DNA from: Amphiura filiformis
Lineage: Eukaryota
Direction of reading: 5' to 3'
Assembly: GCF_039555335.1 (NCBI RefSeq)
Contig: NC_092646.1
Coordinates: forward strand, 36,859,911-36,923,910
DNA length: 64,000 nt
Below, piece by piece: positions 11,901-54,769 of the stretch (the first letter of the stretch is position 1; every line of letters starts with the position of its first letter). A program made the translations under genes and the position numbers. Below the pieces are notes generated by a model. It did not search any database and was not told the origin of the DNA. It saw nothing but the letters and a program-made list of their open reading frames with translations.

Positions 11901-12041
11901 GTGAGTCATGGGGATCGTGGTCCGAGTGTAGCAACTGTGACAGCAGTGGATGGGGTAACCAATACAGATATAGAATGTGCTGTGACGTTACCGGTCGTAC
12001 ATCATTCCAAGATCGAGCGTTACGCCGGTGCAGTGGTTGTC
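11901..12041 (+). CDS. Gene 2 exon D: TSP1-like repeat (ESWGSWSECSNCDSSGWGNQYRYRMCCDVTGRTSFQDRALRRCSGC). Phase 1-1, 141 nt
   Basis: Acceptor gaacttatag|GT, donor C|gtaagt. T+GT=Cys joins exon C in frame. Confidence 0.6.
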
Positions 12042-13626
12042 GTAAGTGTAACCAATCTTTTTCTCTTTCATATTCCAATCTCATATAATGTGTATACTAC
12101 TGTAAATTTGCAAAGAATTTGGCACCACTTTTTCAATTACTTTATTATTTAAATATATATCCATTATTTTAACAAAAATCAAGTTGCATTATTATTACTG
12201 GGATCAAAAGTAATTTTGCGTTATCGTATAAATTTTATTCTTTTGTTTTTAGTTAGCTGAATTAGTCAATGTCGTTTACTTTCGAACCCATAGCATACAA
12301 ACATGTTGGTGCAAATTTAACAAAAACACTTAAGAGTCGATCTACGCTGACCGCTGACCTGCATTCCGAAGTTTTATCATATCTCTCCAAATCACAGCAT
12401 TCAGGTTCTAATATGCAGCTGATAGAAAACATTTCAAGACACTAAAAACAGCATTGATGTTTCAAATTGTACTTAAAATTCTGATTTTGATACACTTTTT
12501 TGCTTAACTCAAGCGCCTCAAACCCCATTGCAATTAAACTGCATTCTTTTCAGTTCTTTGAAAGAAATCCTTATCAAATCCATATACTATACTTCTCACA
12601 GCATTAATATTATTATACTAGTTTAGTTGGAGGACCTCGGAAAACAACTTCTAATCAACGTGTCTACTAGATCGGAACACATGCGTGGGAAAGTAATACT
12701 TGCGTTTAAAAAATCAGAAAGTGTCTCTAGGGTCCAACAGGGGGAGGGTAAAATTTCATATAGCACGGTTGCTCAGACTTTGTCAAAATCTACGCATATT
12801 TAGAAAAAGTATTGATCTATCTGCGACATATCATTCTTGAGTTGTATAGCAGACAGGTTAATTGGGAGGGGTGATCAGTTTTTTTTGATCACATGGGAGT
12901 CAAAACTAAGAGTGCTGGTTCTTGACCAAATCTGAGCAATTATGAAATTTCAACCCTGTGGACCCTTAGGGACACTATTTGATTTTTAAAACAATTTATA
13001 TTTTTCTACGCATGTTTTCTGATCTCAAAACGTATATAAGAAGATGATTTCCGAGGACGCACGCTAGGCCCTTCTTCTAACTAAATTATTAGTATTGAGA
13101 AAACACTAAAGCTCTTTGAAAATTGGGCACTGTGGGTCAATGTCACCTTAAAAGCTAAAGGTCCGCTGATTTTGAAATTGAATTTTCGGGGGCAAATAAG
13201 CCCTCTGTCACCTAAAATGTGTAATAACTCAGTAAATAGTCAGTAATGACTTCATCAACGAGTGCTTTTTGACTTTGAGTGCTATCTACTTCTTCTCTCT
13301 CAGCGTCACCCACACACAGCAGAAGGGGATGGGTCACCTGATCTGGCATTACATGACTAATTTTTGTACGCTCGCTTTCGTCAGAAAATCTTAAAAGCAG
13401 TCGCGGACATTCCACATTATTTAGTCTGGGGAATCCTGACCGTCCCACTTCCAGTCAACCCCTAATACCATTACCATAAGTTCTAAATCCTGCGCACGCC
13501 ATTGATAATGACCAAATCGGTTTAAAAGTTCAAATTGGCAGTAATGAAATGTTATCTTTTATGTCTCGTTTTGCATCCATTTCTCTTATACTTTTTCTTT
13601 TCTTGTTTTTTATTATATTTTACCAG

Positions 13627-14279
13627 CGTCATGTTTTGCGTCCGACTCTATGGTTCGCGTGAAACTACTCACCAAAGATGACACGAAAATAGAACGTAAA
13701 CGAATGGATCAACTGAAAGTAGGAGATCACGTTGAAAGCTTTGACCCGGAAACCAACTCGGTAGCATTTTCTGAAGTGTACTTCATATCTCATGAAGATG
13801 AAACCAGCAACTCCTCTCGCTTGATAAAGTTAGTGTTCGGATTCGAGGATGAGAAAGAGCTATCTCTTCGTCTGCATTCGAAGCATTTGGTCTACGCGTG
13901 CAGTATTGAGGAGAAAGCTGAACCAAATGTAGCACCCATCACTGATTCCTGTCGGTATCCACCGATGAATCCAGTAACCGCTGGGAGCGTGAAAATAGGC
14001 GATATCGTGTGGCTGAGAAATTCTGCCGGTGAATTCTCGCCAAAACCGGTGATCGACATCGGTGAGTCCTGGAATGGCATTCGACATCCAATGACTCTTA
14101 ACCATTACATCGTTGTAGATGATGTTTTGGCGTCTGTTCATATGTATGATGAAAGTCTATACAGGCAGGTCACGGCTCCGTTGAGGTTTCTGTATGTCAT
14201 CAGCCCGTATATTACCGACACAAGCATTGTTAAGAAGCTGGTCCAAATGTGGGATAATGTTGAAGAAAAATTCTTGTAA
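13627..14279 (+). CDS. Gene 2 terminal exon: Hint (Hog) domain, about 87 percent identical to 1863-2506. Stop at 14277-14279
   Basis: Acceptor tattttaccag|CG, phase 1, compatible with exon D (C+CG=Pro). Same Hint motifs as gene 1. Confidence 0.8.
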
Positions 14280-21849: not shown

Positions 21850-22337
21850 GAGCATCATTATTTTTTAATTGTATGTTCAAAGTATATAAAACTATACATT
21901 TTTGGAAAGGAAATGAGTCAAGGAATCCCATGGTGACGTCAGATTTGTTCAAAAATCTCGAGTTTTTGAAAAAATCACAAAAATGCACTTTTTTACCCCA
22001 ATTTTTTTGTGAAAACTTAAAAAAAAAATCCGTTCGGAGTAAAAAAAAATTAGTTAGTTTTTCATGGAGAAGAGACATGAATTTAGAGAAGGTTTTTTTA
22101 TTTTTATGAAATTCGTCTTATTTTTCGAAATATTGCAAAAAACATGTGAAAAAAGCAATTTTGTCACTCTATTAAGTTAAAAATTGCACATAATGGTGTA
22201 TATTTTTGTTCAAAACAAATATTTTGATAGTGCAAAAGGTTTACCTTTTGCTTGCATATTTTTCGAGTTATCTTGTCACAAAAATCGTACAATATTGTTA
22301 AAAATGAACTCTGAGAAATCGACGTTTTAGTAAAAAA
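21850..22337. repeat. Dispersed repeat family X, copy A left part (continues 23361-24000). Homologous to contiguous copy B at 36030-37020
   Basis: Long near-identical stretches (..gtatataaaactatacatttttggaaaggaaa.gagtcaaggaatcccatg.. and ..aaagctgtatctggtg.atggtcta..). Confidence 0.7.
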
Positions 22338-23360
22338 ATGTCAAAATTATGCACAAAACGTCCTTATATTTTAAAATGGCAAGACTTTCACGCTTGTATA
22401 GATTTTGATACTTGTGCTAATATTGTTAGATCTCTCATCATCTCCCGTCTAGACTACTGCAATCTTCTGTTAAATGGTATCAAACAAAAAGATTTGAATC
22501 GTTTGCAGAAGCTCCAAAACAAATGTGCCCGGCTGATTTACCAACAACCAAAATCTTGCCATATCACTCCCTTGCTCACTGACTTGCACTGGCTCCGTAT
22601 TGATGACCGCATCAAGTTCAAACTTCTCCTCTGTGTGTATAAGTCACTGAATGGACTCTGTCCCCAGTACATGAAAGACTGTCTGGTGGTGAAAAAACCT
22701 CGTCTTGGGTCAGTAACAGAGGATGATTTAAGCACTTCCCAGCAAGTCTTGCGGTTAGCACAGCTGTGTGAGTGAACACACACACCCACTGCATACACAC
22801 GTGCATGGTTAAATTTGAATTTGGACAGATATATTTACAATAAAAACACCTTCTAAAGGTTGGTCGATTTCACATTTTATGTTATCTACAGAAGGTGTGG
22901 ATTATCCTTCATGCATACATCACTTTAGATCTGAAATCGACCAACTAATAATGACACACGGGCAATTCTAAAACAACATCTTTTGCACAGAGTTCAATGG
23001 GATTTGAAAAGTAAAGTGGCAGTTGAAACTCTAGTGATAACACTTTTACAGTGCATGATGGGGCTTCCTTAAATCATCCTCTGGGTCAGTAACCACCCGT
23101 TCTTGTCACAACATGAACCTTGAGGTCCCTAAGACACATAAATGTGCTGGCGACAGGGTCTTCTCAGTGGCTGGCCCCAGAGCTTGGAATAATCTCCCAA
23201 ATCACATTCGCAATTCTCCAACAGTTGAAGCCTTCAAATCTGCTCTCAAAACTCATCTGTTTCAGATTTCCTATGTCTAGTTTTCTTGATTTTTGCTTCT
23301 TTGTTTTTATTTTTATTGCGCTTTGAATCCAGCGGTAAAGGCGCTATATAAGTGTCGGTA
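22338..23360 (+). mobile_element. 3' fragment of L2-like LINE ORF2 (..ISRLDYCNLLL.. then ..RVFSVAGPRAWNNLPNHIRNSPTVEAFKSALKTHLFQ) with a MITE nested at 22716-23083. 3' tail ..ggtaaaggcgctatataag
   Basis: Conserved L2/CR1 C-terminal motifs on both sides of the MITE insertion. Confidence 0.75.
22716..23083. mobile_element. Second copy of the cagaggatgatttaag-TIR MITE, perfect 9-bp TSD ggtcagtaa, inserted inside the L2 fragment
   Basis: TIRs and identical 9-bp flanking repeats at 22707-22715 and 23084-23092. Confidence 0.85.
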
Positions 23361-24354: not shown

Positions 24355-24690
24355 TATCTCATGTACAGAAACATAATGGGCTATTTCATTTAAAATCCAC
24401 ACTACCCATGTGGAAGATTTTGGAAATATCTGCCACATGAATTTCAAATGGAATGAGCACATTAGGCAGTTCCATTTGAATTCTATACACCCTCTGAGAA
24501 AGATTCAACCTTAATCTTCCCGAGAGGAGAGCGAGTTTGAAATGGAGTTGTTAATGTGCTCCTTCCATTTGAAATTCATACTCCTTCTGTGGAAGATATT
24601 TCCACATTCTTCCACAGGGGTAGTGTGGATTCTAAATGGAATAGCCTGTTGATGGTCATGGTCAATCACCATGGGTATCACCAAAGACAC
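24355..24690. mobile_element. High-copy foldback MITE family (core ..ccatacaccccct.tggaagacat.. / ..catttgaaattcacactccctgtgtg..). Other copies about 31600-31800, 37440-37620, 38085-38240, 43010-43260, 54055-54470 (tandem), 59540-59670, 60040-60300
   Basis: Recurrent palindromic 150-300-bp units recognised at least 9 times in the window. Confidence 0.7.
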
Positions 24691-30512: not shown

Positions 30513-32719
30513 AATTTTATAAAAGCCTTCCATTTTGTTATGGAAATGTAAGGATCAGGCTGCCAATTCGCCAGCGAAGTGGTTACATTACTCCCTGGTA
30601 ACTGGATCACGCGCCTTTTGGAATTGGTAGTACATGCCATAGGCTTTGTGTTGCGACCATTTCGATCGTGGTGTAGATCAAACTCAAATGCATGATCCAG
30701 TTGACATGGTGATAATTGGATTACACATAACACTTCGCTGGCAAATAGGACCACTCTCTTATTAGGCCTAAAAATAATATTTTCCAACATACAATATTGA
30801 AAAACTTTTAAGTGCACAAAATATGACGGTATAAGCACTGATTTATCATGGTTTACCAGATTTTTTTAAAAATATATTGGAGTAGTTTAGGAATATAACA
30901 GTTTAGGAAGATATACAGATTTGCTGTGTGGAGGACTAGTGACCCATGGCAACATTAATTACACAGAGGCTGGCCCAGCCCATGAGAACTACCTCCTGAT
31001 TGGCCAAAAAGAAGTTTTCATTATCAATTGGACCAATCAGCAACATTGTTAGAATAATTTAACCACACAAAAAATGGGGTGAATTATCTGCAAAGCTCCA
31101 TTCTGGTTGGTGATTAAAGTGAAGACATCATATAATTGACCAATCAGTGGCAATGTTAGATCGGCAGGTAGTGCTCAGGGGGTTAAAGATCATAGCTAGG
31201 TAAAATACACAGAGAAACATGCCTACTTACCCAGCAGTTCTATTCCAGCATCCTTTATTAGTTTGATAAAGTCAGCTACTTTGATCTTACATATGATAAG
31301 AAACTGCTCCGAGAATTTCCAAGATCCATCCTAAAAATAAATTAAACAAATGGCAAAAAGTGTCACCTCAAGACCATTTGATGTTAGGAGGAGGAACAGA
31401 ATTTATTTTTCTGTTAATAGGGACTTGATAATGCAACAAAAGGATCTAAATTGAATTCCTATATGTTTTGATGCAAAAATGTTTAGGGGTCATGCCATCA
31501 ATAAATCCAATTTGTTATATCAAATATAATTGTATAATTTGTGATCAGGATTGCAGCCACAACTTCTCTGACCATAAAGTGGCAAGTACCACCCCTGGGC
31601 ATTGTTCAAGTAGTCCAATGTCCAGTCAAAATAGACTGTTCCAGTTAAAATCCATACACCCCTTATTATGGAAGATATGTCCATAACCTTCCACACAGGG
31701 GGTGTAGATGTCAAATGTTAGGAGTCACCCATTCAACAGGCAACCCCATTTGAAATTCACACTCCCTGTGTGAATGGTTATCATGTCTTCCATCTGGGGC
31801 ATATATATTTCAACTGCAATAGCCCGATCTTAACATTTGGGTGCTTTTACTCATTCAATCACTGAGCCAATTGGATGGATGAAAACTGAAATGACTATAA
31901 TCAATAAAGTGGCCATAACACATTTGGAGAGGGAAATTTAACTTTTCAACAGTGGCCTGAAGTGACTTAGCAAGAAAAGCGTGCAAATTTTGGCTATAAG
32001 CCTCAAAACGGGCTGAAAATATAAGTGCAGAAATTTGGAGTAGTACAAAAAATAGGAAATTCTACATTGAAGGAAATCCTTAATACTTGTAAAATTAGCT
32101 TAATTTTGAGCAATGTACAAGCCTTTTCCAAGAAAGCGGCACAGAAGGCTATCAGGGTTGCCAACCCTCAATTTGGTAGCCCAATTGGGAGAACTTTTGA
32201 AGATATTCCCCATGACTTTTGACAATTTCCTGTCCCAAGGAAACCAAAATTGGGTGAATTTTCAACTTTGGCTCCGATGACTTCCAATAGTTTCCTGTCC
32301 CATAGAAACCAGTGGTTAAGAGGAAAATTGGGCAACTTTTCGATTATTTGACCCGCGATTCGGACTGAAATGTTTTGGTAATACTGCAAGCTATTTGATA
32401 GTAGCCCAATGGTGCTGGTATAGTGCATTTTGGCAACCCTGATCTAACCAGGCTCCAGCCAACATGGCTGGTTTATTGTTTGCATGCTACAGAGCCTAAA
32501 ATAAAAACAAAATGCCGGGAATGCGAAATATGACACACATGATGCTGCCATCGGGGTACAATGGAAGTGTATAGGGTGCTAAAGAAACATAGCATACCAT
32601 GAGATGTACATGACCGGTTGTTCCAGGATATGTGATGGCAGGGTAATTATGGTGGCTTGCATAGCTGACTGCAGAAGCCACCAACACTTCCCTATTTATT
32701 TATTCCCTGATCTTATTAC

Positions 32720-32965
32720 CTGTTCCTGCATATCTAGCAATTGCCTCATGTTAGTCACTCCTGCTTGCCGGAGACATGTAACATGGATGGCGCTAGTATC
32801 ATATTGCGGTCTGTCCGTTTCCTTGGTCTTAGTTATAGATCTTCTAGCCGCGGTCTCAAATTGGGAAGACCCACATAGCAGGCTGTCAGCCCTGTCATCC
32901 AACTCTGCCAGTTTTTCATCACGCTGCAAAACTTTATCTATGTTGCTCCATGGCTCCATCATCCT
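32720..32965 (-). CDS. Exon encoding VAMP/synaptobrevin-like R-SNARE motif: [43 protein letters not shown]... No transmembrane segment found; 3' boundary uncertain
   Basis: Acceptor ttctttgtttctgaatgacttgatgcag|AGG, candidate donor CAG|gtaata. Compare VAMP2 [37 protein letters not shown] with zero-layer Arg conserved. Confidence 0.55.
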
Positions 32966-33606
32966 CTGCATCAAGTCATTCAGAAACAAAGAATCAGATC
33001 ATGCACAAGTTTTATAAAATAGAATTTCCCCACCCAAACGCAAATCTATTCAAGACATATAAAAATGCATTGGTTTTGTACACATTTTCTATATCTTGAA
33101 TAGATTCTGAAGTGAACACAAGTTACAAATTTGTCCCATTTTGATACATAATTGTATATAGCGGTAACTTTAAATATCAACCATGATTGATTGCAGCACT
33201 TGGCTTTAACCCCATGAGAATTACCTGCCGATTGGCCAAAAAGAAGTTCTCATTATCAATTGGACCAATCAGCAACATTGTTAGAATAATTTCACCACGT
33301 AAATAAATTGGGGTGAATTATTTGCAAAGCTCCATTCTGATTGATGATTAAAGTGAAGATATCACATAATTGACCAATCAGAGGCAATGTTAGATCAGCA
33401 GGTAGTGCTCAGGGTTAAGTCCAGGGACTCTCCAAAGATATTAAAAATCTCAATAAAAAAAGTAAATTTATTTTTTCAGATTATTTCCCAAATGTCAAAA
33501 AACGCATTGGGAGGCAAAATATGCAAATTGCGCTGCAAATAAAGCGAATTTTTACAGAAGGACACTTTTAGTTTGTGCCTAAAATTAAGGTTATGTCAAG
33601 GGAGCA

Positions 33607-33875
33607 CATATGTGATGCGATCAAGCAAAATCAGTCGGAACTCGGAAATATTGATTTTGAGATATAGCCAAACAAAGGCAATATTTCCTTTTGTTTCCTA
33701 TTGTTTTGGAAACTCCTTAATTGCTCATATCTTTAGAACTGGTTGCTCAATTGCAATTGGGTTTTCTGCAAAATGCAGCTTTGCAATGGCTTGTTACTAT
33801 CCTGTAAGAAACTAAAAATGTAATATTTTCGAGTTCCGACTGATTTTGCTTGATCGCATCACATATGCGTCATCA
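33607..33875. mobile_element. MITE family with TIR ..gatcaagcaaaatcagtcgga... Other copies 56502-56752 and 60352-60572
   Basis: Three homologous about 260-bp copies each with inverted termini. Confidence 0.75.
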
Positions 33876-33884
33876 GGCGAATCT

Positions 33885-35405
33885 TTACTGTATTTCATAC
33901 ACAACAAAGAATTTCTATCAATTTGAAATTTTCGCTTGACAAAACCAGTAAGTTTTTACTTTTACTCTAATATTTCGTCCTACACGTCCGAGGACTTCTT
34001 CAGATGTGAAACATCTGATCCACTTTCCCGGGAAACTGACTTCCGGTTGTGATTACACAGCCGTGACATTAGTCACGGCTGTGTCTTTTTTCTTACAGGA
34101 TCTTCTTTCTTCTTTCTTCCGTGACATTAGTCACGGCTGTGTCTTTTTTCTTACAGGATCTTCTTTCTTCTTTCTTCTTCTGCCGACCATTACATTTGCT
34201 CTAGCATTTACATGTATGCATCGATTTCGACCTAACTTGGTCACTATCATCACTGACCATGCCCCTACATGTTGTATGAAATTTGTGGGATCAAAGGTCA
34301 CGTAGGGGTCACAGGGGTCAAAAATGTGATTTCAACTCAAAATGCTACCTCTCCCACAAATTTCACAGGACAGTAACACCACTTGCACATATGCATTGTT
34401 ATTACCCAGCGTCTATAAATCATACACAGAATTGAGGTCAAAGGTCGTTAAGGGGTCACTTCCGGTAAAAAACAAAATTTCTTCAAAATTTTTACTTAGC
34501 TAAGTAAAACATAGGAGAGTGACGGTATGTGCACACATGAATTATGTTTACCTAATGTATATGTGGTATTTATTTATTTGGGGTCAAAGGTCATTAAGGG
34601 GTCACTTCCAGTATAAAACGAAATAACTTCAAAAAATTTTATAAGCTAAGAAAAACATAGGAGAGTGACGGTATGTGCAAACATGAATTATGTTTACCTT
34701 ATGTATATGTGGTATTTTTTTTGTTTGAGGCCAAAGGTCATTAAGGGGTGACTTCCGGTATAAAACGAAAAACCTTCAAAAATTGTTATTTGATAAGAAA
34801 AACATAGGACAGTAACGGTATGTTCACACATGAATTGTGGTTACCCAATTCATATGTGGTTTTTTTATTTGGGGTCAAATGTCATTAAGGGGTCACTTCC
34901 GGTCTGAGACGAAAAACCTTCTGCCACAACATAGCAAAGTGGTGCCACATGCACCCATGCATTGACATTTATAGCCAATGTCTATGGGCATTTTCATATA
35001 TTTTGGGGTCAAAGGTCATTAGGGGTCACAACACGGCTGTGTTCGTGGGTTAGACCACAGCTAAGTCTAGTTGGTCTTGTATCCCGTCTTTAAAAGTGGG
35101 TCATATACGGGACTTAGGAAATAAGTGCCTTCCTCTCTATTCATGGTCTTTGTCCCCCTCTTTCTGATCTCCATCGCTTCTCGTACTTCTCTGGATCTTC
35201 TGATATGATCTTTTCCAAGTATCTTGGAGTCCTCCCAGACTGGATACAAGACCAATCACAACCGGAAGTCAATTTCCCGGGAAAGTGGATCAGATGTTTC
35301 ACATCTGAAGAAGTCCTCCGACGTGTAGGATGAAATATTAGAGTAAGTAAAAACTTACTGGTTTTGTCAAGCGAAAATTTCCAATTGATATGTCTTACAA
35401 ACCTG
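33885..35405. mobile_element. Non-autonomous TIR/foldback element with about 170-bp terminal inverted repeats enclosing a 5-copy 125-bp tandem array (34420-35040)
   Basis: 33890-34060 is the reverse complement of 35250-35400. Internal ggggtcaaaggtcattaaggggtcacttccggt.. repeats. Confidence 0.75.
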
Positions 35406-36029
35406 ATGAATCTATTCACTAAAAAATTTCTACAATATCAATGCATCCACCTTCAAAAAAATTAATACCTGCAGGATGCGAACGCACCATGCGTAGTATG
35501 TGGAACTGTGTGCGAGTGCAATAATACAATATTTATGCACTAAGCATATTTTTCTAACAGCTTTTCTGATTGGCTATGCAGTTCTAAGAGTATATGAAAG
35601 ACCAATGGACACATCACAAAGAAATATTATTTTACCTATTTCATGAAACAACATGCATTATTAGGAAAAAAAAATATTGGGTCGGTTTGTCGATCTTTTT
35701 TTTTTTTTTTTCATTGGCTCTTCCTTCATTTTTCCTCAATTTTGAAAAGCCTAGTATTGACAAATGCTTGAACATTTTGCAATAAAACTAAAAATATGTA
35801 TTTATGGAATAAAATAAGTGAATAACAAATACAAAATGTCCTTGATAGTGTCAAAATTAAGGTTTCTCTTAAAAAAGTGATTGGTAAAAAAACCTGACCC
35901 AAGATTTCTAATCTTTTTGGTCGGTTGCGGAGGTTACGCAACCCAACATATTTTTTGTTGGCATTATAATAAAATGGAACTACATTGTATTATGCTTATT
36001 GATCAAGACATGGACAAGTTATGAATCAT

Positions 36030-37020
36030 TATTTCTGAATTGTATGTCCAAAGTATATAAAACTATTCATTTTTGGAAAGGAAAAGAGTCAAGGAATCCC
36101 ATGATGGCATCAGATTTTTTCAAAAATCTCAAGTTTTTGAACAAATCACAAAAATTCACTTTTTACCCCAATTTTTTTGTGACAAAATAAAAAAATCGGT
36201 TGGGAGTAAAACAAAATTCAGTAGCTTTTCATGAAGAAGAGACATGAACTTACGGAAGGTTTTTTATTTTACTTTTTAATTTGTCTCTTTTTTCAGAATA
36301 TTGAAGAAAACATGTGAAAAAAGCAATTTTGTCACTCTATTAATCTAAAAATTGTACATAATAGCGTATATTTTTGTTTAAAACAAATATTTTGAAAAAA
36401 TGAAAAAACATTCCCTAGACTTTGATGTGCTCTAAACCATAGTGCAAAAAGTTTACCCTTTGCTTCCATATTTTTCGAGTTATCTTGTCACAAAAATTGA
36501 GCAATGTTATCAAAAGTGAACTCTATCTGAGAAATCGATGTTTTAGTAAAAAAAATGTCAAAATTATGCACAAAACGTCCATATATTTGTAAAAGCTGTA
36601 TCTGGTGCATGGTCTACACGTGCATCTTTTTGCACCAATGAATCTATACTGTCTGCTTTTAGTGCGCCAAAATTCAAAATAATTAAAAAATCTAAGTGGC
36701 AGTTTGACTGCAAATTTTTGTTTTGTTTACACACATTTGCTGGCGTTAACAACATACCGAATGCGCCTTGACTGCGTTGGACATACGTGCAGATCGCATG
36801 CGTAATCACAATATTCCGCATTTGCGCGTTCCTGACTCATTATTTCCCGCCAATTTTCTAAGTCTTGAGCCATGTGACTTTTTAGAGTCGAAAAGAGTGA
36901 AATAAATCAAGCAAAATACGAGGAAATATTTAACAAGTTGTATTTTATCAGTTTCAAGTGAAAGAATACATCTGAGTGTTCCTAAGTTTCAAGAAATCTC
37001 AAATTAAAGGCGCTGACGAA
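36030..37020. repeat. Dispersed repeat family X, intact copy B
   Basis: Collinear with 21850-22337 plus 23361-24000. Confidence 0.7.
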
Positions 37021-37084
37021 TGTGTCTACCCTTATTCTGGCTTTAAGCAAACAATGGACTATTCCAGTTGAAATTCATACACAT

Positions 37085-37430
37085 TAAGGGTACACCCCTG
37101 GCCAATTTTGTGCCTATTTTTGCATTTTTCTCAAAATTATAGTGCATTGGTGACAAGTAAGATATGTATATTATAGGGGCAAGGACTACAACTACTGCAC
37201 TGAAAATTCAGCAACTCAAGGCAAGTAGTTATTGATTTATTGATCAAATATTGGTTTTCCTCATTTTGACTGTAACTCCACTTCTGTTGTCTGTGCTGAA
37301 ATAAAATTTCCAGTGCAGTAGTTTTAGTCCTTGCCCCTATAATATACATATCTTACTTGTCCCCAATGCGCTATAATTTTTGAGAAAAATGCAAAAATAG
37401 GCACAAAATTGGGCAGGGGTGTAGTATTTC
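37085..37430. mobile_element. Second copy of the 30.1 kb foldback MITE
   Basis: Near-identical sequence. Confidence 0.8.
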
Positions 37431-38869
37431 TTAAAGTAGCCCAATTTCATTCCAGTTCAACCATCCATACACCCCCTATGAAAGACATGACCTACACAGG
37501 GGGTGTAGATTTCAAATAGAGCCACCTGTTCAGGTAACCCCATTTGAAATTCACACTCCCTGTGTGACAGATTAAGGTCATGTCTTCCATAGGGGTGTAT
37601 GGATATCAACTGTAATAGTCTAAATTTTGCACTAAATATCTGAATTTGGCAGAATGTGGGGGGGGGGGTCAGCACGGCCCTACCCAAACCAAACTGCACT
37701 TTTGACACTTGCTAAGTAAATACAGGATTGCAAACATAGTAATTACCTTATCCACTGAGTTTTTCTTACCTTTGGCCGTCGTCCATCTCTCCAGCCCCTT
37801 CTGCCAATTCCTGACTTGCCTGAGCCTCGAGGCTCCTTCAAACCCGCCTCGCCTCGAGCTCCAAACCCGCCTGCGCCTTGAGCTCCAAAAAACCCGCCTG
37901 CGCCTCGAGCTCCAAACCCCATCACATTGAATCCAACCTGATAAAACATTCAATTCAAAATAATTATGTTAATATATTTATTTATAAAATTTACATACAA
38001 ACAAACAAAACAAGCAACCAAACAAAATTCAGCAAACAAGTCCACTGGTATATCAGAAACTGGCATTAATATAATAGGCTATTCCAGATGAAATCCATAC
38101 ACCCCGATGGAAGACACAGGGAGTGTGAATTTCAAATAGGGTTACCTGAATGGGTGACTCCATTTGATATCTCCACTCCCATTGTGGGAGATTAAGGTCA
38201 TGTCTTCCATAGGGGGTGTATGGATTTCATCTGGAATAGCCCAATCAGAAATTGCATAAGTAACATATACCGTAAAAGTGGAAATTTTTTGTGGTACATG
38301 AATTTTTGTGCTTTTCGAGGGTAACACAGGTACAGCGAAAATAAAAACACTTGAATATGGTCTTTTAATGTGTAGGTCTACCGTATTTCATCAAATAGTC
38401 GCCCCCTCAAATAAACGCCCCACCACTTTTTTCAACCAAGACGTTTCAAAAATGCCGGTATTTCCATGCTATCTTGTGTAGTAAGCTTACCAAGTTGCCC
38501 ACATGGTCGATAATAGCGTCACTTTTGGCGAAAATCTGGATTGGAAACCCGGAAGTGAACCCGAAGTCAGTGTTTCTAGTTCATAGTTCGTCATTTTATT
38601 GTGAGTTTTAAGTTTATCTAATGATTTTAACAGGAATTATCGTTCTAAAATTGACCTTGAAAAACGCCCCCTTGGGAACATGTAACCCCCAGGGGCGTTT
38701 ATTTGACGAAATACGGTATTTAAGAAAATTCATAATCATAAAACGAAAAACTAGCAATATAGATCAATATCGGCAAAGCGCGTAAAATCACACACATGAA
38801 AATTACTACTTTTACAGTACTCAACTCTATACTCAATCCATTAACATGCATAGGATCAAGCCTCACAGA

Positions 38870-39470
38870 ATTCTAAAATTCCCACTTGCCCGCTGGGCAT
38901 GTCCACATAGAAATCTACTTGCCCGACTTAATATTTTACTTGCCCAACTCTATAGCCCAACTCTATACTCAATCCATTCAAATGCATAGGATCAAGCCTC
39001 ACAGAATTCTAAAATTCCCACTTGTTCGCTGGGCATGTCCACATAGAAATCTACTTGCCCGACTTAATATTTTACTTGCCCAACTCTATACTCAATCAAT
39101 TCAAATGCATAGGATCAAGCCTCACAGAATTTTAAAATTCCCACTTGCCCGCTGGGCATGTCCACATAGAAATCTACTTGCCCGACTTAATATTTTACTT
39201 GCCCAACTCTATAGCCCAACTCTATACTCAATCAATTCAAATGCATAGGATCAAGCCTCACAGAATTTAAAAATTCCCACTTGCCCGCTGGGCATGTCCA
39301 CATAGAAATCTACTTGCCCGACTTAATATTTTACTTGCCCAACTCTATAGCCCAACTCTATACTCAATCAATTCAAATGCATAGGATCATGCCTCACAGA
39401 ATTTAAAAATTCCCACTTGCCCGCTGGGCATGTCCACATAGAAATCACTTTCCCTACTTAATATTTTACT
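38870..39470. repeat. Tandem repeat, about 120-bp unit x5 (..atgcataggatcaagcctcacagaatt.taaaattcccacttgcccgctgggcatgtccacatagaaatctacttgcccgacttaatattttacttgcccaactctata..)
   Basis: Direct reading. No unique spacers, so not CRISPR-like. Confidence 0.9.
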
Positions 39471-41166
39471 TGCCCAGCTCAGTTCCAATTTTGTATGCAT
39501 AAAGTTTACAAATTTCGAATAGTCGATACTGCAATTGCCAGACGGACTAGGTAAGGTACGATTTTAGGGCATCTTCTACTGCCTGTTGCTTTGAGTTGGA
39601 GATAACAAAAATACTATGGCGTTTTGGGTCAAGCTGGGAGAAAAAATCCCAAGTCGACCTAAAATATCGTATCGCATACGATAGACCACCTAAGTTATCG
39701 TAAATCGGTTTCTCCCAGGTCTACCGTAAATTTTGGGTTGTTACATTCGGCCTGCAAACGCCAGGATTTTTAGCCAGATCGACCCAGTCGATCTCGACAA
39801 GCATGCAAATAGGCCTATACATACCCGCACGTGCCCGACCATGGCGATATACATGACAAGTATAAACCATTGTACAGCGTTCAGTCATCATACTTTCGCA
39901 AGCGCCGGTGACTTTTACGATATCTGTTTGTCTTGGCATCTAAATTAATTCACAGTCATAAGCCTAGGCCTACTCTATATTCGTATTTATTAAAGTAGGC
40001 CCACAGAGGCAAATTTAAGGAGATATATCCGGGGGCACTCACATGTTAAGGTGGTGCGGGTATGTGCGGCGCTCAAGGGTCCCTTTCTCAGGCTCTCCGG
40101 CAGTTCCTTAAGCCCCACATTTGGATCTGCTCAAATTTGGAAATAATTTAGAAATTTTTTTTTTTTCTGCCTATAATTTGGCCCTAATTTCAGTTCTTCA
40201 AGCCCCTATTTTGCCCGAAAATCAGTTCTTAGTTCCCAAAGTTTGGCGCTCCACGCCGCACACCCCTACCAAAATTTAAGTTGAGTGCCCCCCCGGGATA
40301 TATCATACTTCAAGTTTCCTAAGTTGCGTCAACACCATCATGATATAGGCCTAACATGCCTAAGCTTAAGCTTACATCCAAGTTCACATGGACGCGTACT
40401 GCGAGTCTGTGACTCGATGTTTCAGACTTGTGAGAAATAAATTATGAGAAGAGGTCAAAAAGGATCAAATAAAATAATCCAACAAAGAATCACCCTGCCT
40501 AAGTGCCGGACATATGCCTGCATGTTTTATATTATTATCCACCACGAAAGGAGTGCCAATTTCTATTAGCCTAAGCTGTCTTTCTATCAACAAGCGCAGC
40601 ATCTCCCATCTTGACCAATTTGGCAATACTAGTAGTACTTTTGCATGGTTTCGTTTGCTAAATGAAATGCTGCAAATGTTTTTATTCTTCTTGTTGGAAG
40701 TTCTTGATTTGTATAAATATATATATATATATATATATTTTCATATCGAAAAGTGCATAATTCTAATAATATCTGTCATTTTAAAAACCCATTCAGTGAT
40801 CCCAGCGCGAGTGTAAAAAATAAAATTGTTTATAAATTGCTTAAAAGTTAAGGCTAAGTCATTCAAATTGTCATTCGGTATTTTTGAAATGAACAAATTA
40901 AAGATTTGGCAAATAACAAAGAAAACAGCAGAATGGACGAAGTAGAAGCCCCACTCAAATGCATGTAACTAATTTATATACTGTCAGTTATATATCTGAA
41001 TTTGGATGATTTTTACGATCATCCGGATGAGCAAATCACTGAATGGGCCTTTATATCCCTCTGTTGTTGGTTGCCCGGCATCAAATTTTGGTTGTCTCGG
41101 GCAGCCGGGCAAGCCATTCTGTGAACCCTGCATGGGATATAGAGGGCAATGCATACCTTTTCATTG

Positions 41167-41326
41167 AAAATGCCCTCTATTTGTTGGTTCTGTGAGGAAA
41201 TCTCACTCTGCATGTCCATGGCCATATGGCATAAGTTGTCCACTTTGTTGGCCACTTCTTGGATGCTTTCATCCATCTGATCTTCCTGAGTATCCTTGGT
41301 TTTGCTTGACCTTGTCCTAATAAATG
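41167..41326 (-). CDS. Exon encoding SNAP-25-family C-terminal (Qc) SNARE motif: ..DTQEDQMDESIQEVANKVDNLCHMAMDMQSEISSQNQQIEGIFNEK
   Basis: Acceptor tttgtttgcatttattag|G, donor AAG|gtatgc. Compare SNAP-25 [36 protein letters not shown]. Confidence 0.65.
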
Positions 41327-41489: not shown

Positions 41490-41870
41490 CAAACTTAGCA
41501 AGTTAGCTCAATCGATAAGGCGTTCGACTATGGTGGGAGAGGTTGCGGGTTCGAACCCTGGTGGTGCCTAGTATGTTCTCGTGAAAAATTGAGTTAGATT
41601 GAGTTGCTAATTGTCTCGTTGTAACCCGTACGAAACTCGGGGAGCTGATCCTGGTTGCAAAGGTTATTTGTGGATTGTCTAGGGTGTGCGCTCTTGAAGC
41701 AGCAAAGTCCCTGATTTGTTGTTTAATGGTTTATGGAATGTTGTGGGCCATAGTGATCAGCGACAACCTGTAAAGTGTGCTGAGGCTTGTGGAACAACGT
41801 CTGTGCCTGTGCGTATAGTGCACTATAAATCACTGCGCTTTTTTTTTTATATAAACCATTTTACAACATT
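41490..41870 (+). mobile_element. tRNA-derived SINE (tRNA-like head with GGTTCGAACCC T-loop, 3' tail ..gcgcttttttttttatataaa)
   Basis: tRNA-like but imperfect cloverleaf. Tail related to L2-like LINE tail at 23300-23350. Confidence 0.5.
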
Positions 41871-42505: not shown

Positions 42506-43269
42506 CCCTACCTCTACCTCTGAGAGATTAAAATTCAGTGATGCCAACGCCGCGCCTTAGGCGCACAATTGGGCTACTTGGCGATCACTTGCCGCTACTC
42601 AAAAAAGCATGCCGCTAGTTGTCTAAAATTGGGCTACTTTTGCCAGTCTCAGGCCGCGGCAGTAATTTGATGTATTTTCCTTTCAATTTAGCCGATTTAT
42701 AAAGGTTTTGAGTCTTTGAAGCCCCAAATTGACATTTTGCGTTCTAAATTCGGGTAAATCCGCCCAAATATTCGATATTGGGTGCTTTTTTGGAAGCTTA
42801 AAAAATTGGGCTACTTGAGAATCCTTTACAGCGGCCTGGCGAGTCAATGCGCCGTATACCTTGACGCTGAAAAGTTTTGGCAACACTGTTAAAATTACCA
42901 AGATTCATTTACTGTTCTATGAGTCATTGTGGTGCATGTTTTTGCTTCTATATTATCCAAACTGCTGGAGCAATCATTCAACTCAAAACTTGGGAATCAG
43001 ATTGTTTTGGTGATATGCCTCAAATTAGGCTGGAGCATGGGTAAAATTTCAAATAGAATAGACAGTTAGGTAACATCCATTTGAAATACTCACTTCTGTT
43101 GTGGAAAATATAGGTAAAGCAATAATACAGTGGGGAGGATGGATTTCAAAATGATTAACCCTGGCCAATTATACTTAAAAAACATACACCCCCTGTGGAA
43201 GATATTTCTAAAATCTTCAACAGGGGTAGTGTGGATTTCAACAGGAATAACCCAATGCAATATACAAAT

Positions 43270-46200
43270 TATTATTATTATTATTATTATAACACATTTA
43301 TAAAGCGCATAAACGTAAAAAACATCTCAATGCGCTAACAAGCAAAATGGCAAAAGCAACAAACAAAGAGTACTCATTACATTGCAAAATAAATAATGTG
43401 GGAAAAACATGACAAAAGTTAAACAAGGAAAGCAATTCTGTACAGGTGGGTTTTTAGCTGCGATTTAAATTGAGCAAGATTGGGTGATTTATGGATCTGT
43501 TCCGGGAGGCGTTCCACAGTATTTAGGCGGCAACAGCAAAAGCCCGTTCACCATAGGTCTTTGTTCGGGAGCGGACAATTTGCAGATGGTCATTGGGACG
43601 CACATTACCTGACCTAAGGGCACGAGGTGGAATATAAAGGGTGATCAATTCAGACAAGTATGGAGCAGCAATACCGTTGAACTCCTAGTCTGTGAGGAGG
43701 AGGATTTTGAATTGAATTCTCTCCTCAATTGGGAGCCAGTGAAGTTGGTCGCGAAGACTTGGAGTTATGTGATCCCGCTTTTTTGTAAGTGAAATTAGAC
43801 GAGCGGCCATGTTTTGGATTCTTTGGAGTTTGTTTATATCTTTCTGTGGGAGACCGTGGAGGAGTGAATTGCAATGATCAAGCCTGCTGATGACAAAAGC
43901 CTGGATGAGTTTGTGAGTGGAGTCCTGGTCAAGGTATTTGCTTGCAGCTTCCCAATCTTGCTCAATGCAAATGTAGCGCCGCGGCACAAGTTATTGACAT
44001 GCTTGTCCATCCTAAGATGTTGATCAAGAACTGCACCAAGATTTCTCACTTGGGGTGTAGGATGGAAAGCAGCATCACCCACACTGATAGAAGGCAATTG
44101 ACGAGGCATTGCAAAACGAGAAGTGAAATGAATAATTTCTGTTTTGCTATCATTTAAAACAAGAAAATTAGAGGACATCCATAATTTTATGTCCTTGACA
44201 CAATTCTCAATTTTCTCTATAGCGCTGTCCTGATTTTTGACATTGAAACTGATATACAGTTGAGAATCATCAGCAAACTTCATACAGGAGAGTCCATGAG
44301 CAGTAATTATGCTCTCCAGGGGGCAGTATAGAGAATAAAACAAATGGGACCACACACCGACCCCTGTGGCATACCATAATCTATCTCAACAGGATGAGAC
44401 AACACTCCATCAACAAGGACACTTTGACTCCTGTTTTGAAGATACGAGGAGAACAAGTTGAGTGCAGAGCCTCCGACACCATAGCGTGATTTCAGACGAT
44501 TAATGAACACCTTATGGTCTATGGTGTCGAAGGCTGCAGTTAAGTCTAGGAGGACCAAAATGGTCTCACCACCTTGTTTATCAAGATCCATGAGGATGTC
44601 ATTATACACACGAGTTAGGGCAGTCTCAATACTATGGTACTGCCTGTACGCCGACTGAGAAGAAGCAAAAAAATTGTTAGAGTTTAAATACTCAACATAC
44701 TGCTTCATAGCACAGCGCTCAATGACCTTACTCAGAAATGCCAAGTTAGAAATAGGCCTGTAATTTTTCATTGTTTCTGGGTCGAGACTGGGCTTCTTCA
44801 GAATCGGCGTAACAAGGGCAGATTTCAGAGCATTGGGAAAAACACCCGTTTTAAGAGACATATTGGTAATTGTAGTGATATGTGGCAAAAGCAAGTCTAG
44901 ATTGTCTGCTATCAAACAAGCAGGAAGGGGATCAAGAGAACATGATTTAATTTTTGATCCCTTGATAATTTCAAAAACCTCGTCTTCGGTCACTGGACAA
45001 AATTTGGTAAAAGAGCTACTACACGATTCCTCGTTGAGCCCTGCAACAGAGCAATGACTCTGTTGTTTTGCAGCAAGAGTACAACGGAGAGCCCTAACTT
45101 TGTTGTCGAAAAAACTCTGCAAAATCTTGGACAAGGTTCTCCTTAGAGCTGTGGGAAGGGAGCACCTGTTTTGGTTTGTGCACAGACAATCTATCAATGA
45201 CACGGAAAAGTTGTTTTTGGTCACAGTTTTTGATTTCAAGTTGATGATATTCTCTCTTGGAAGCATTAAGTGCTTCTCTGTATACTTTACATTTTTCAGT
45301 AAGTATTTGTTTGTGAACTGTCAAACCCGTCTTTTTCCACTTGCGCTCAGCTGCACGTTTAACACGTTTGAGGCTGTGGAGGTTCTCATTGTACCAAGAT
45401 GTATTTGGTCTTGGAATAATACTATGTGTAGTCAATGGGGCATGGTTATCCAAGACTTCACTTAAAACTGAGTTGTAATTACTAACATATATGTCTAAAT
45501 CATTACAAGGATCATTGAGATTAGAAGACAGAATATCATTACGAAATTCTTCAGTGTTTATTTGGCGGATCTTGCGAAACTTGATCTGAATACGGCGCAA
45601 CTGGAGGACGAACAAGATTGACATTAAACCTGATAACATAGTGCGGTAAAGGCATAGTATGCACCACATGAACGCCACCTATGCAGTTGTTATTCTCATT
45701 AGTAATGAGAAGATCAAGCCAATGTCCTGCAGTATGCGTTGGTTCAGATACAAGCTGGACAAGACCTGCTGAGGCTAGGATCTCATTTAAGGTTCTAGTG
45801 TCACTTAAGTCAGGTATGTCCATATGGAAGTTAAAGTCACCACAGATGATCATGGGTGTAGTACACAGACATGCAGTTTCAAGTAAGCTGTTGAATTCTT
45901 GGAAGAAGACAGATGGTGGAACTTTGCTACACTTGCTGGGCGGTCTGTAGATGGTTATCAGCTTCAGATGATCTTGCATTCCTGAGGTGATTGACAATTC
46001 AAGGCAATCAGATGATTGGAAACTATGTTTTTTCTCAACAGTTTCAAATCCGTCACGGAGGATAACACAAATGCCTCCACCTCTCTTGCCTAAGCGGGGA
46101 AGTGTGTGGAATTTGTAACCAGGGAGAGTGTTTGATATGTCTGCAAAGGCATGATCATCTCGGCTATCACCATAGAGCCATGCTTGGTTAGTGCAAATAT

Positions 46201-46700
46201 GTCCAGTTGCTCAGATTCTATGAAATCACCAATGTCAGTGATTTTGTTCATCATTGATTGTGCGTTCCACACAGCCATTTTACACGCGCTGGATTTACTT
46301 TGATGAACAGTGATAGGATGGGTTGGTTTTAGGCTCTCTGCAGTAGACTTTTTTCCTCGTCTAGTGGGCTTTTGGGCATTTAGACCAAGGGACTTGATCT
46401 TTTCCCAGTCAGCTTGGGCAAGTCTAGCAGTAACAGAGTTGTACTTGAGAAGTTCTTTCCTAGTGTATTTGACAGGTCCACACATTGTTTTGATGATGTA
46501 GTCAATTTGATTAACAAACTGATAAGTGGATACTTGAGAGTGGTAATCAATGAGATGAGTACTCACTTGAGAGTTAGACTGATCACAACTTGAGATGGAA
46601 TCAGTTGTTGTCACAGATAATGCAATAATCAATATTGCAACACTGTAGTAACCAGTATTATGTAGTAGCCATTGGCAGTTTTAAGCTTTCCCAGATGAAA
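43270..46700 (-). mobile_element. CR1/L2-like non-LTR retrotransposon, near full length but frameshifted (ORF1-like region, apurinic endonuclease, RT, C-terminal domain). 3' end with (ATT)n-like tail
   Basis: Minus-strand ORFs. Endonuclease (AVWNAQSMMNK..DIFALTKHG; ..ICGDFNFHMD..). RT (..LLDLTAAFDTIDH.., YGMPQGSVCGPICFILY). C-terminal ISRLDHCNSLL motif. Six broken ORFs, so inactive copy. Confidence 0.85.
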
Positions 46701-51803: not shown

Positions 51804-53021
51804 CTTTCTTCTTTGTCTTCTCTACTATCAGTGAATCTTCTTACTGGTGGTTGGGGCACACCTTGTGTAGATTCAGGTTTTCCAAGCTTCTTGGTTACAT
51901 TTTCTGAGGGAATTGATTGTTCTTCATAAGAACGATAAGAAGCATAAGCATATGATCTGAAAGCTTTTCTTGAGGGAACTGATTGCGTACTGCCACGATC
52001 AAGTGATATTCCTGATGCTGCAGGAGGTCGTGCTGCTTGTGCTTTTATAGGAGCTGATGCCCTTTGTCTAGATGTTCTTGCTAGTGCTGCTGAAGGGGAA
52101 CGTTTGGCTTGTGTCGGGCTTGTGCTTTCGTAAGCAATGCCACGAGCAAGCAGTGACCGAGGAGATGCACTGTAAGCTGCTCTGTCATATGCAGGTGGAA
52201 GAGGGGAGGTGCACCGCCAGGAGCAGATGGTGGAGGGGGAGGTGCACCGCGACGAGCAGGTGGTGGAGGAGGTGCACTATAAACTGCAGGTCGTGGAGGG
52301 GGAGGTGCACTATAAGCTGCAGGTGGTGGAGGGGGAGGTGCACTATAAGCTCCAGGTGGTGGAGGGGGAGGTGCACTATAAGCTCCAGGTGGTGGAGGGG
52401 GAGGTGCACTATAAGCTCCAGGTGGTGGAGGGGGAGGTGCACCACCAAAAGCAGGTGGTGGAGGGGGAGGTCCACAACTACCACCAGGTACACCACCAGA
52501 TCTAAAAGCCGGAACTGAACTGTACGGTTCTAATTTATGGAGACCACTTACTGTAGGTGGTGATGGTGGTGGTGGTGAAGCTTGTTGGGCCATTTGAGGT
52601 GGGAAACGTTGAGGTGCAGAAAGAGCGGGCGATTTAGTTACAGACATGGAAGGTGGAGGTATATACTTAAAAATCATACGAGTTGGTGAAGGTTGGTCAT
52701 CATCGTCATCAAATAGACCGAAACCCATATCATCATCAGAATCATAGTCAGATTCCTCATAATCTTCATCCTCTATTTCTTTTACTGCTGCTGCTGCTCC
52801 ACCTGCTGAATTGGGTGTTGGGGATGGTATAGTGGGTGATGCCGATTTCTTTTTCTTCTTTTTTGATGTTTGAGGTGAAGCTAAATCTGATTTTGTGAAT
52901 GATGACTGTTCATAGCTCATAAACTCAGTGTCTACAGACGCTAAATCTACAAGACCAAGTTCTTCAACTTCTTCTGGTTGTAAGCAAACATCTTCATAAT
53001 CATCATCAAAATCAGCAGGTG
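51804..53021 (-). CDS. Large exon of a proline-rich protein. Acidic N-part with DDDMGFGLFDDDDD, then eleven 33-nt repeats encoding GAPPPPPPGAYSA (FH1/WASP-like polyproline), then Ser/Ala/Tyr-rich tail. Reading frame shifts by 1 nt near 52203-52206
   Basis: Acceptor tttatttaccag|CA (53023-53022) and donor AG|gtaag (51803-51799). Long ORFs in two frames joined by a single missing G in the run at 52203-52206 (other repeat units have five Gs). Confidence 0.6.
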
Positions 53022-54484
53022 CTGGTAAATAAATAACAAATAAATAAAATTAAAATAAATATATACCGTAACATTCCTGGTATAAACCCACCCTTCTAGA
53101 TGGGTGATTTCACTCTAAAACTGGGGTAGGCTTATAATCAAGGAGGGGCTAGTACTTTTTTTTTTTTTTCAATCTTCCAAATTTGTTTTACATTTATGCC
53201 TGATGCAACCATCTATGTCAATGTTTTATATATAGAATGAAATTGTTTTATATTTGTTCTTAAATGTGAGAGCAAAGTACAGATTTGATTTGGCCAATAT
53301 CAGTACTATGGTACTATACCACAGGGGTCTGTTTCCCAAAAAAGAAATTGGGCTTTAACCCTGGTCGAAAGAAAAGCATTTAACAATTCACTAGTTACGC
53401 AAAACTTGCAATACAATAGGCAAATTTTAGCTCATCCCCCCCAACACCTCCCCCCCTTTTTGCTCTGGAAAAATTGTTGGCACTGCCACTGAGATAATTT
53501 GTGATCGTTATTTGTGAAGGGTATTTTAAGTCCCTGGACACAACTGGTCATTTAACAGCATTTCTGATTGGTTGATAACTTGAAATGCTTATTTCAATTG
53601 CCAATTATGACCAGGCTTTTAAGTTATGGTCAAACTTGCATTTGCAGGTGTTCTTATTAATACCCTCCTTGATTGGTTCAAAATTGGACACAATATTCGT
53701 TTTGGCCAATCGGCAGGTAGTTCTCATAGGGTTAAGACGGCCAGACTAGTTCTGAGATACTGGTGATTAAAACTTGCATAATATACAGAAAATAATTTGA
53801 AAATTCACTCGTTTTATTAACTGAAATTTAGAAGATATTTTCAAGTCATATTTGTTCGATATTTCTAATATTCTGGCTGCAAAATACTGTCACAAATGGC
53901 ATCCCCCACCGAGCATTATTGTTGGGTGCACAAACGTGCAGTAATTAACTGTCCCCCAACTAGCATCGTAGTGTCGTGGGCCTGGTAGTGATTGAGATTT
54001 GATTGCCACTGAAAGTTTCCAGATCATTGCTATTTACACCAAATAACATCTTCCCGTCAATTTAAATAATGGACTATTCCATCTAAAATACACACTACCC
54101 CTGTGGAAGATTTAGCTAAAGTCTTCCACAGGGGGAGTATGAGTTTCAAATAGAATATACAATTGGGTAGCTTCCATTTGAAATACTCACTCCAGTTGTG
54201 GAAGATATAGGTAAAGCTATAATACAGGGGGAGTATGAGTTTCAAATAGAATATACAATTGGGTAGCTTCAATTTGAAATACTCACTCTAATTGTGGAAG
54301 CTAGATAAATGTAAAGCCATAATACAGGGGGAGTATGGGTTTCAAAATGATTAACCCTGACCAATTACATTTGAAAAACTTGACATACTACGTCCTCCTA
54401 TGGAACATTATTTCCAAAATCTTCAACAGGGGTAGTGTGGATTTCAACTGGAATAGCCCAATGTACCCTAACGAACAAACAAAC

Positions 54485-54769
54485 CTTCCTCGGCCATGCA
54501 ATAATCAATCATATTCACGACATCAATTTCACTGTCTCTGCTCCTGCTTCTGCTTCGACTACTTAAACATTCATCTAGTTCATCCAGAAGATCTTCATCT
54601 GGACTGTGGCTCAAGCTCATCATCATTCTTTTTTCCCTTCTGGGACGATAGGCAAACCGTTTCCCTCCCTCCTCCTCCCCCTCCTCCTCCCCCTCCTCTT
54701 CATCCTCCTCCTCCGAGGATGATGATGATGACGATGACGACGATGACGATGACGACGATGACGATGAGT
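54485..54769 (-). CDS. Candidate exon: poly-Ser / acidic / RS-like (SSSSS..EEEDEEEGEEEG..SRSRSRSRDSEIDVVNMIDYCMAEE). Possibly upstream exon of the proline-rich gene, or a terminal exon ending at stop 54468
   Basis: Good acceptor cttttttatgattttatag|AC. Open frame. Phase-compatible weak donor G|gtttgt. Confidence 0.3.

Follow-up and report, generated by a model that had tools for sequence, protein, structure and literature searches.

Two SNARE-motif exons on the minus strand

The 64,000 nucleotide (nt) stretch of the brittle star Amphiura filiformis analysed here, referred to as the window (contig NC_092646.1 of assembly GCF_039555335.1, positions 36,859,911 to 36,923,910), is eukaryotic DNA with a G+C content of 37%, and its minus strand carries two isolated exons that each encode part of a SNARE motif: an exon derived from VAMP/synaptobrevin exon 3 (32720..32965) and, 8,191 nt upstream, an exon derived from SNAP-25 exon 7 (41157..41316). 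This anatomy, an orphan, anchor-less, half-length R-SNARE exon of brevin origin and an orphan SNAP-25 Qc half-motif exon on one strand, is secure. A preliminary description of the same DNA had pointed to an R-SNARE-like peptide in 32720-32965, to the lack of a detectable transmembrane (TM) anchor, and to a SNAP-25-like exon about 8 kb away on the same strand, and these observations were borne out.

The VAMP-like exon is 246 nt (82 codons) long, open throughout and of phase 0 on both sides, with an AG at 32967-32966 and a GT at 32719-32718 (ttgatgcag/AGG at its 5' border and CAG/gtaataag at its 3' border, the slash marking the junction), and it lies within a 100-codon open frame (32998..32699, minus strand). 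It encodes the residues RMMEPWS, followed by a conserved R-SNARE core of 35 residues (32944..32840) and by a 40-codon orphan tail that runs to the strong GT donor. The core shares 24 residues with VAMP2 and covers layers -2 to +7, in which nine of the ten layer residues are retained, the sole exception being a conservative Ala to Ser change at +5. Its zero-layer Arg is the CGT codon at 32921..32923, within LQRDEK, which by alignment to VAMP2 49-83 equals VAMP2 R56, the layer 0 residue (PMC6457932); the Arg of DDRAD, earlier taken for the zero layer, corresponds to R66. Outside the core, layers -4, -3 and +8 are occupied by Arg, Pro and Ser, so that the label of a textbook R-SNARE core fits layers -2 to +7 and not the motif as a whole. 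Eleven substitutions in the exon fall at positions invariant across 33 canonical sequences. The seven residues before the core and the eleven after it share only 1/18 positions with the VAMP2/canonical consensus, versus 24/35 in the core (Fisher p=9e-6), which argues against uniform neutral decay. No hydrophobic stretch is present in the open reading frame (ORF), which continues from the core through a 47-residue orphan tail to a stop: if the GT at 32719 is unused, the read-through residues VIRSGNK and the stop TAA (32698-32696; 32696..32719 in all) would form the C-terminus of a TM-less product.

The similarity of the core to synaptobrevins is far above chance. With 33.6 bits, the match to the Pfam Synaptobrevin profile (PF00957) clears the cut-off of 26.4, over profile positions 21-56 of 89 only, and VAMP2 chains in the PDB match the peptide with E=6e-11. 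A custom synaptobrevin profile, built from 33 full-length hits and run against the 3,473 six-frame open frames of the window, finds the VAMP-like exon with E=2.4e-13 (positions 22-57 of 92), the next match having E=0.74. In tblastn the exon is 69% identical to the VAMP2 probe (E=1.7e-12) versus 24% to a tomosyn C-terminal probe (E=0.003). Canonical VAMP exon 3, as found in ORFs on animal contigs, reads '...Q/VVDIMRVNVDKV...KN[CAL]K/V...' with a phase-0 start right after CAG; these ORFs begin 'Q/VVDIMRV...' and hold core and linker in one exon. The acceptor of the VAMP-like exon is located at this ancestral phase-0 position (cag/AGG ATG ATG...), and the shared exon-3 start therefore identifies it as a genomic derivative of exon 3 and not a retrocopy. 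Judged from its sequence, the VAMP-like exon is a diverged copy of synaptobrevin exon 3 without its 3' third. It exceeds the family-profile threshold and has the zero-layer Arg, but three of five brevin-defining features, the complete 16-layer heptad, the KRKYWWKN linker and the TM anchor, are missing, and it is therefore not to be filed as a VAMP.

The missing parts were searched for throughout the window. The tblastn, short-peptide PAM30 and profile searches found no exon-2-like sequence (layers -7 to -5). Directly after the core, only 1/11 residues is identical to the KRKYWWKN region, in agreement with the earlier remark that the sequence there is not a brevin linker plus TM, and no alternative-frame remnant follows directly downstream. 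For linker and TM, tblastn with seven R-SNARE probes (VAMP2, VAMP3, VAMP4, VAMP7, VAMP8, n-Syb and tomosyn), PAM30 searches, hydropathy scans, and the profile run on all ORFs were negative across the 64 kb, the only profile matches at TM positions being poly-Ile noise (E>0.7), and a systematic scan found no phase-0 acceptor followed by a tail-anchor exon within 13 kb. An origin of the tail by permutation of exon 2 or by internal duplication was rejected, the resemblances in question (to RRLQQTQAQV, and of QYDTSA to QFETSA) not being significant (p=0.38). Pfam searches with the antisense ORF and the tail, as well as Rfam and ARAGORN, returned nothing, and no pieces of syntaxin, complexin or SNAP-29 were found.

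Just past the exon, tandem poly(A) signals AATAAATAAA (32704-32695), with the stop embedded in them, are followed by a GT-rich block GTGTTGGTGG (32687-32678), the whole spanning 32678..32704 on the minus strand. An AATAAA lies this near for 5.7% of positions, and 21/101 AATAAA have a GT-rich block after them, giving a joint chance of about 1%. An in-frame 'KCWW' 57 codons past the core was considered as a remnant of KYWW; such motifs are rare (4 per six-frame window), but its surroundings do not resemble the linker and TM (shuffle p=0.31), and the GT-rich poly(A) downstream element accounts for it better.

These data bear on the suggestion, made in the preliminary description, that the TM is encoded by an unfound exon. 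The VAMP-like exon would then be an internal cassette of a larger gene, using the phase-0 donor at 32720, with further exons, possibly including an anchor, downstream or outside the window, and its product would not be TM-less. The strength of the CAG/GTAATAAG donor (97th percentile of all GTs on the strand), the symmetric 0/0 phase of the 246-nt exon and a hydrophobic ORF at ~31937, 780 bp downstream, speak for such a cassette. Yet this ORF has no AG between the upstream stop and its hydrophobic run and was rejected as a TM exon, no tail-anchor exon or linker/TM match was obtained in the searches above, and the stop with its tandem poly(A) signal lies 21 nt past the donor. Canonical brevins, moreover, encode the linker in the same exon as the core; since it is missing from within the exon here, an ordinary VAMP was already unlikely, and the KLKRKYWW-like linker and TM exon that would have made it one was looked for in the window without result. 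We consider the cassette improbable.

The SNAP-25-like exon (41157..41316, minus strand) enters in phase 2 and leaves in phase 0, with borders ttattag/G and AAG/gtatgc. It matches SNAP-25 chains in the PDB with E=1.7e-9 and the SNAP-25/23 family profile with E=6e-11, over positions 139-184 of 206 only. All ten layers from -7 to +2 are intact, including the zero-layer Gln (codon 41192-41190) of a Qc SNARE, and layers +3 to +8 are missing. The canonical ophiuroid exon 7 was recovered from a related brittle star (P0002; ENA ERZ25070167 contig ctg307712, here L002); the two exons have identical intron phases and 80.5% identity over 133 nt, with introns that cannot be aligned. Contig L002 also holds two tandem candidate last exons of canonical SNAP-25 (5852-5914 and 7814-7876), encoding ..GTSNVGRLEAANTRASKLLK and SASNVDRIGLSNQRATNLLRK up to a stop and each preceded by a polypyrimidine tract and AG, which are possibly alternative 3' exons.

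Near the SNAP-25-like exon no Qb motif, Cys-rich linker or last exon was found by family profile, tblastn or PAM30, and the two last-exon candidates from L002, used as probes, had no match in the window. Two apparent SNAP-25 exons further upstream, at 63.76 kb and at 62.2 kb, were dismissed as chance matches, and a proline-rich ORF (52084-53049) was rejected as the preceding exon, no phase-2 donor connecting it to the SNAP-25-like exon. It could be argued that the window holds parts of two unconnected and highly diverged paralogues, one akin to SNAP-25 and the other to VAMP, with further exons too divergent or too distant to be recognised and with an adjacency that is coincidental or reflects an ancestral neighbourhood: each exon retains its parental intron positions and phases, and introns can be long in a 1.57-Gb genome (PMC11310086). 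Nevertheless, the family profiles find nothing more in the 22 kb upstream and 32 kb downstream, the last-exon probes were negative, the exon-like ORFs found on that strand between 64 and 52 kb are unrelated, and no such paralogues are annotated, which leaves this a very improbable account.

Gene-like signals, constraint and a putative two-exon gene

The SNAP-25-like exon ends at a phase-0 donor and the VAMP-like exon begins at a phase-0 acceptor, so that splicing the one to the other would preserve the reading frame across a putative intron of 8,191 nt (32966..41156, minus strand), which consists largely of repeats (MITE-like units, tandem arrays and hairpin elements; MITE, miniature inverted-repeat transposable element). 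Ranked among all GTs of the strand, the donor of the SNAP-25-like exon is in the 99th percentile; the acceptors are in the 88th (SNAP-25-like) and 83rd (VAMP-like) percentiles. The G+C content is 47.6% in the VAMP-like exon (45.8% in its orphan tail) and 43% in the SNAP-25-like exon, compared with 44-52% in confirmed neighbouring exons and 33% just upstream of the VAMP-like exon. Ahead of a candidate start codon (41274..41276, minus strand), which encodes the conserved Met of ..EMDE.., lies a leader of 472 nt free of ATG; none of the 1,380 ATG-free runs on the strand is longer, and 39/5000 dinucleotide shuffles of the leader lack an ATG (p~0.008). A TATAAT is located at 41467-41462, 191 nt upstream of the candidate ATG.

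The substitutions are unevenly distributed over the encoded helices. In the SNAP-25-like exon, 13 residues were never seen in five canonical sequences, none of them in the ten heptad layers (p=0.018), and ten changes affect canonically invariant positions (including R161C, R176Q and R180G), none in the six invariant layers (p=0.049). In the VAMP-like core, one of the 11 changes is at one of the ten layer positions (p=0.089); for both exons combined, novel residues keep clear of the heptad layers with p~0.012. Compared with exon 7 of L002, the SNAP-25-like exon shows 0.17 nonsynonymous substitutions per site (dN) and 0.61 synonymous ones (dS), an omega of 0.28 that is based on only ~23 synonymous sites, as well as two indels (+12 and +3 nt), both in frame, and no stop. 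Across the 406 nt of both exons the frame is open and unshifted and every splice site is retained; neither the disabling mutations nor the neutral substitution pattern of a pseudogene was found. Because canonical SNAP-25 hardly changes, nearly all of dN falls on the branch of the window copy, and this branch is, on its sequence, one of rapid evolution with frame and coiled-coil core kept. No diverged paralogue is annotated that could have been a recent source, and the constrained divergence therefore belongs to the history of this locus.

The most plausible arrangement joins the VAMP-like and SNAP-25-like exons in a single putative transcript, and we tentatively regard a lineage-specific two-exon chimeric gene for a putative soluble SNARE-like protein of ~129 residues as the single best explanation, with a chance just short of even. 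Exon 1 would start with the ATG at 41276, encode Qc layers -7 to +2 and end at the donor at 41157, the 8,191-nt intron would be removed, and exon 2 would run from the acceptor at 32965 through the R-SNARE half motif and the 47-residue orphan tail to the stop at 32698 within AATAAATAAA. The predicted product would be soluble and consist of two amphipathic helices, with a break at a Glu-Pro between them. AlphaFold2, run without an alignment, models two helices split at Glu-Pro and a disordered tail, with predicted local distance difference scores of 87-97 for the SNAP-25-like helix, 59-70 for the VAMP-like helix and below 50 for the tail. Lacking an anchor, such a protein would be unable to bridge membranes and might act in the manner of tomosyn, amisyn or soluble VAMP fragments, its SNARE-like helices inserting into syntaxin/SNAP-25 acceptor complexes to give non-fusogenic complexes that would damp or time exocytosis. 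A more specific proposal, possible rather than probable, is that exon shuffling in brittle stars joined a Qc N-half (with its ionic Gln) and an R C-half (with its ionic Arg) in a ~129-residue putative regulator of SNARE zippering, the natural counterpart of half-SNARE peptides used in vitro.

Several observations weigh against a functional chimeric gene. The heptad register is not continued from one half to the other, and a Pro lies between the halves, so that they do not form one long SNARE motif, and the AlphaFold2 model has a predicted template modelling score of only 0.31, a low overall confidence at which helix packing is not readable. The Pro at layer -3 and the loss of the linker fit decay equally well. 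The start-codon, poly(A) and splicing signals were noticed post hoc, and each has only p~0.01-0.1. The setting is rich in repeats, with MITE-like copies around the VAMP-like exon and, 2.4 kb upstream of the SNAP-25-like one, a dead long interspersed nuclear element (LINE). The annotated, RefSeq-derived proteome of A. filiformis includes products of neighbouring genes but nothing that contains either exon. A HMMER scan of 1.84 billion cluster representatives with both exons fused found no protein with similar exons, and a word-indexed search, together with one that took all ORFs overlapping the two exons on either strand as queries, found no similar protein, in collections that include the annotated A. 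filiformis proteome; exact matches to seven predicted-product variants or to genomic ORFs were likewise lacking. The syntenic contig of the related brittle star (L001) ends 1.4 kb past the gene described below that encodes a Hint module, and the orthologous SNARE locus was not retrieved. Since the clusters of this Hint gene hold NCBI members only, read-level and transcript assemblies of A. filiformis being apparently outside the collections searched, the negatives on expression are weak, and the informative one is the RefSeq protein set. A literature search on SNAP-25/VAMP chimeras returned nothing relevant.

The same observations give weight to the main alternative, a recently dead relic, i.e., the remains of a lineage-specific SNARE-derived gene or of partial VAMP and SNAP-25 duplications, no longer transcribed or translated, whose signals have not yet decayed. 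The absence of both exons from the RefSeq-derived proteome beside annotated neighbours would be expected of a relic, as would the loss of every other parental exon and of the linker, the Arg, Pro and Ser at layers -4, -3 and +8, and the position in repeat-rich DNA of a highly rearranged genome of which 59% is repeats (PMC11310086). What such a relic does not readily accommodate is that 406 nt have escaped any stop, frameshift or splice-site loss despite a dN of 0.17 in the SNAP-25-like exon, that the changes avoid the layers, and that the ATG-free leader and the stop/poly(A) layout are intact; with frames and signals in this state, death must be very recent relative to the age of the copy. The relic is nearly as likely as the chimeric gene, if below an even chance.

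If the two-exon gene is real, a small protein combining a Qc N-half and an R C-half, recently derived from neuronal fusion SNAREs, would represent a new route to regulate SNARE assembly, a clean natural case of exon shuffling between partner genes, and a natural test of half-zippered complexes. If the locus is a relic, it would show that single SNARE-motif exons can persist with their heptad cores intact and mislead homology-based annotation.

Repeats and neighbouring genes

The genome of A. filiformis measures 1.57 Gb, of which 59% is repeats, and is the most rearranged among echinoderms (PMC11310086). The VAMP-like exon is bracketed by two copies of a MITE-like element of 205 bp, located upstream at 33211..33414 and downstream at 30979..31180, which are 92% identical and have inverted-repeat ends of ~29 nt. 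The element carries three CCAAT-type boxes (GACCAATCAG), and a partial copy is found at 53696-53735. The same orientation of the two copies, their inverted ends, their identity and their spacing of 2.23 kb around the exon would suit a composite transposon that had carried the VAMP-like piece as non-coding cargo. The element is dispersed, however, as the partial copy at 53.7 kb shows, two nearby insertions are to be expected in a genome with this share of repeats, and no second copy of the 2-kb interior occurs in the window. Such cargo would also leave unexplained the SNAP-25-like exon, the phase compatibility and the layer constraint, and it is highly improbable as the origin of the exon.

Other repeats are numerous. 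The LINE-type element at 43688-46680 (minus strand) encodes an endonuclease and a reverse transcriptase, both confirmed by Pfam, and is split over several frames and therefore dead; a second C-terminal reverse transcriptase fragment lies at 22308-22772 (plus strand). Inside the ATG-free leader, at ~41530-41620 (minus strand), a tRNA-like T-arm (GGTTCGAACCC) and a D-arm-like complement suggest a fragment of a tRNA-derived short interspersed nuclear element (SINE), although ARAGORN and Rfam call nothing there. The putative intron contains tandem arrays at 38822-39475 and 34432-34921, with units of ~136 and ~146 nt, and large hairpin-forming inverted repeats are located at 33916-35390 and 37091-37423. 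A dispersed short repeat family of SINE/MITE-like character, with the translation '..EIHTPPVEDM..FHRG..DFKWN..', is present in the window in at least six copies and in both orientations (24373-24646, 31624-31822, 37449-37633, 38075-38245, 43047-43257, 54300-54520 and 60000-60370).

The annotated A. filiformis protein XP_072019147.1 aligns to the window at 7.6-14.3 kb with 98-100% identity. Its gene (7654-14276, plus strand) is composed of an AID/APOBEC-like deaminase exon (HSE...SPCTEC; sub-threshold with Pfam APOBEC_N/SNAD4), a thrombospondin type-1 repeat and a Hedgehog-type Hint autoprocessing module. A more diverged tandem paralogue is located 12 kb away at 288-2503 (plus strand), and the same order of deaminase and Hint is found in the related brittle star (ENA ERZ25070167) on L001, at 2882-3670 and 10001-10732. 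The combination of a secreted deaminase and a Hint module appears unusual. On the minus strand, the proline-rich ORF of 322 codons (52084-53049) contains five PPPPPPGAYSA repeats and an acidic motif, DDDMGFGLFDDDDD, which corresponds to the C-terminal end of ribosomal stalk P proteins (Pfam Ribosomal_60s, 28.5 bits with the cut-off at 28.1). Upstream of it on this strand, exon-like ORFs at 63356-63195, 61541-61317, 60791-60696 and 54800-54471 resemble exons of a disordered protein.

Comparison with known SNARE systems

Among the known families, the VAMP-like exon stands closest to the brevins (VAMP1-3, PF00957), with which it shares 69% identity to VAMP2 49-83, the zero-layer Arg, layers -2 to +7 and the exon-3 phase-0 start, and from which it differs by the lack of layers -7 to -3 and +8, of the KRKYWWKN linker and of the TM, and of equivalents of exons 2 and 4. 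Its partner exon relates to the SNAP-25 family (Qbc) in much the same way: it matches residues ~138-184, with layers -7 to +2, the zero-layer Gln and the intron phases of exon 7, but lacks the Qb motif, the Cys-rich palmitoylated linker and the last exon with layers +3 to +8.

In the known soluble regulators of the R-SNARE type, tomosyn (STXBP5) and amisyn (STXBP6), the motif is complete, resembles that of VAMP only distantly and is attached to a large scaffold. Both proteins sequester syntaxin and SNAP-25 with a C-terminal R-SNARE-like motif, the VAMP-like domain of tomosyn sequestering syntaxin-1 (PMC2568027, PMC8377282). The predicted product may resemble them in having an anchor-less R-SNARE-type helix, here a partial motif, near its C-terminus, and would be expected to form non-fusogenic Q-SNARE complexes. 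Unlike theirs, its VAMP-like core is brevin-derived and a half motif instead of 16 layers, the partner domain of this half would be a SNAP-25 Qc half motif, and no WD40/Lgl or PH-like N-terminal domain was found by Pfam in the selected upstream minus-strand ORFs that were searched. The alternative offered in the preliminary description, a TM-less R-SNARE regulator of the tomosyn/amisyn type, is accordingly the better of its two readings with respect to the anchor, and does not extend to family membership, in view of the half motif, the closer similarity to VAMP2 than to tomosyn and the lack of such a domain. By analogy, the predicted product would resemble tomosyn in mechanism without being a member of the tomosyn family. 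Soluble C-terminal VAMP2 'Vc' peptides (approximately residues 49/57-92) are laboratory constructs that, as free peptides, associate with the t-SNARE acceptor complex in its C-terminal half. They cover nearly the same layers as the VAMP-like core (-2 to +7), which differs from them in being encoded by a genome and, in the putative two-exon gene, in being fused to other sequence.

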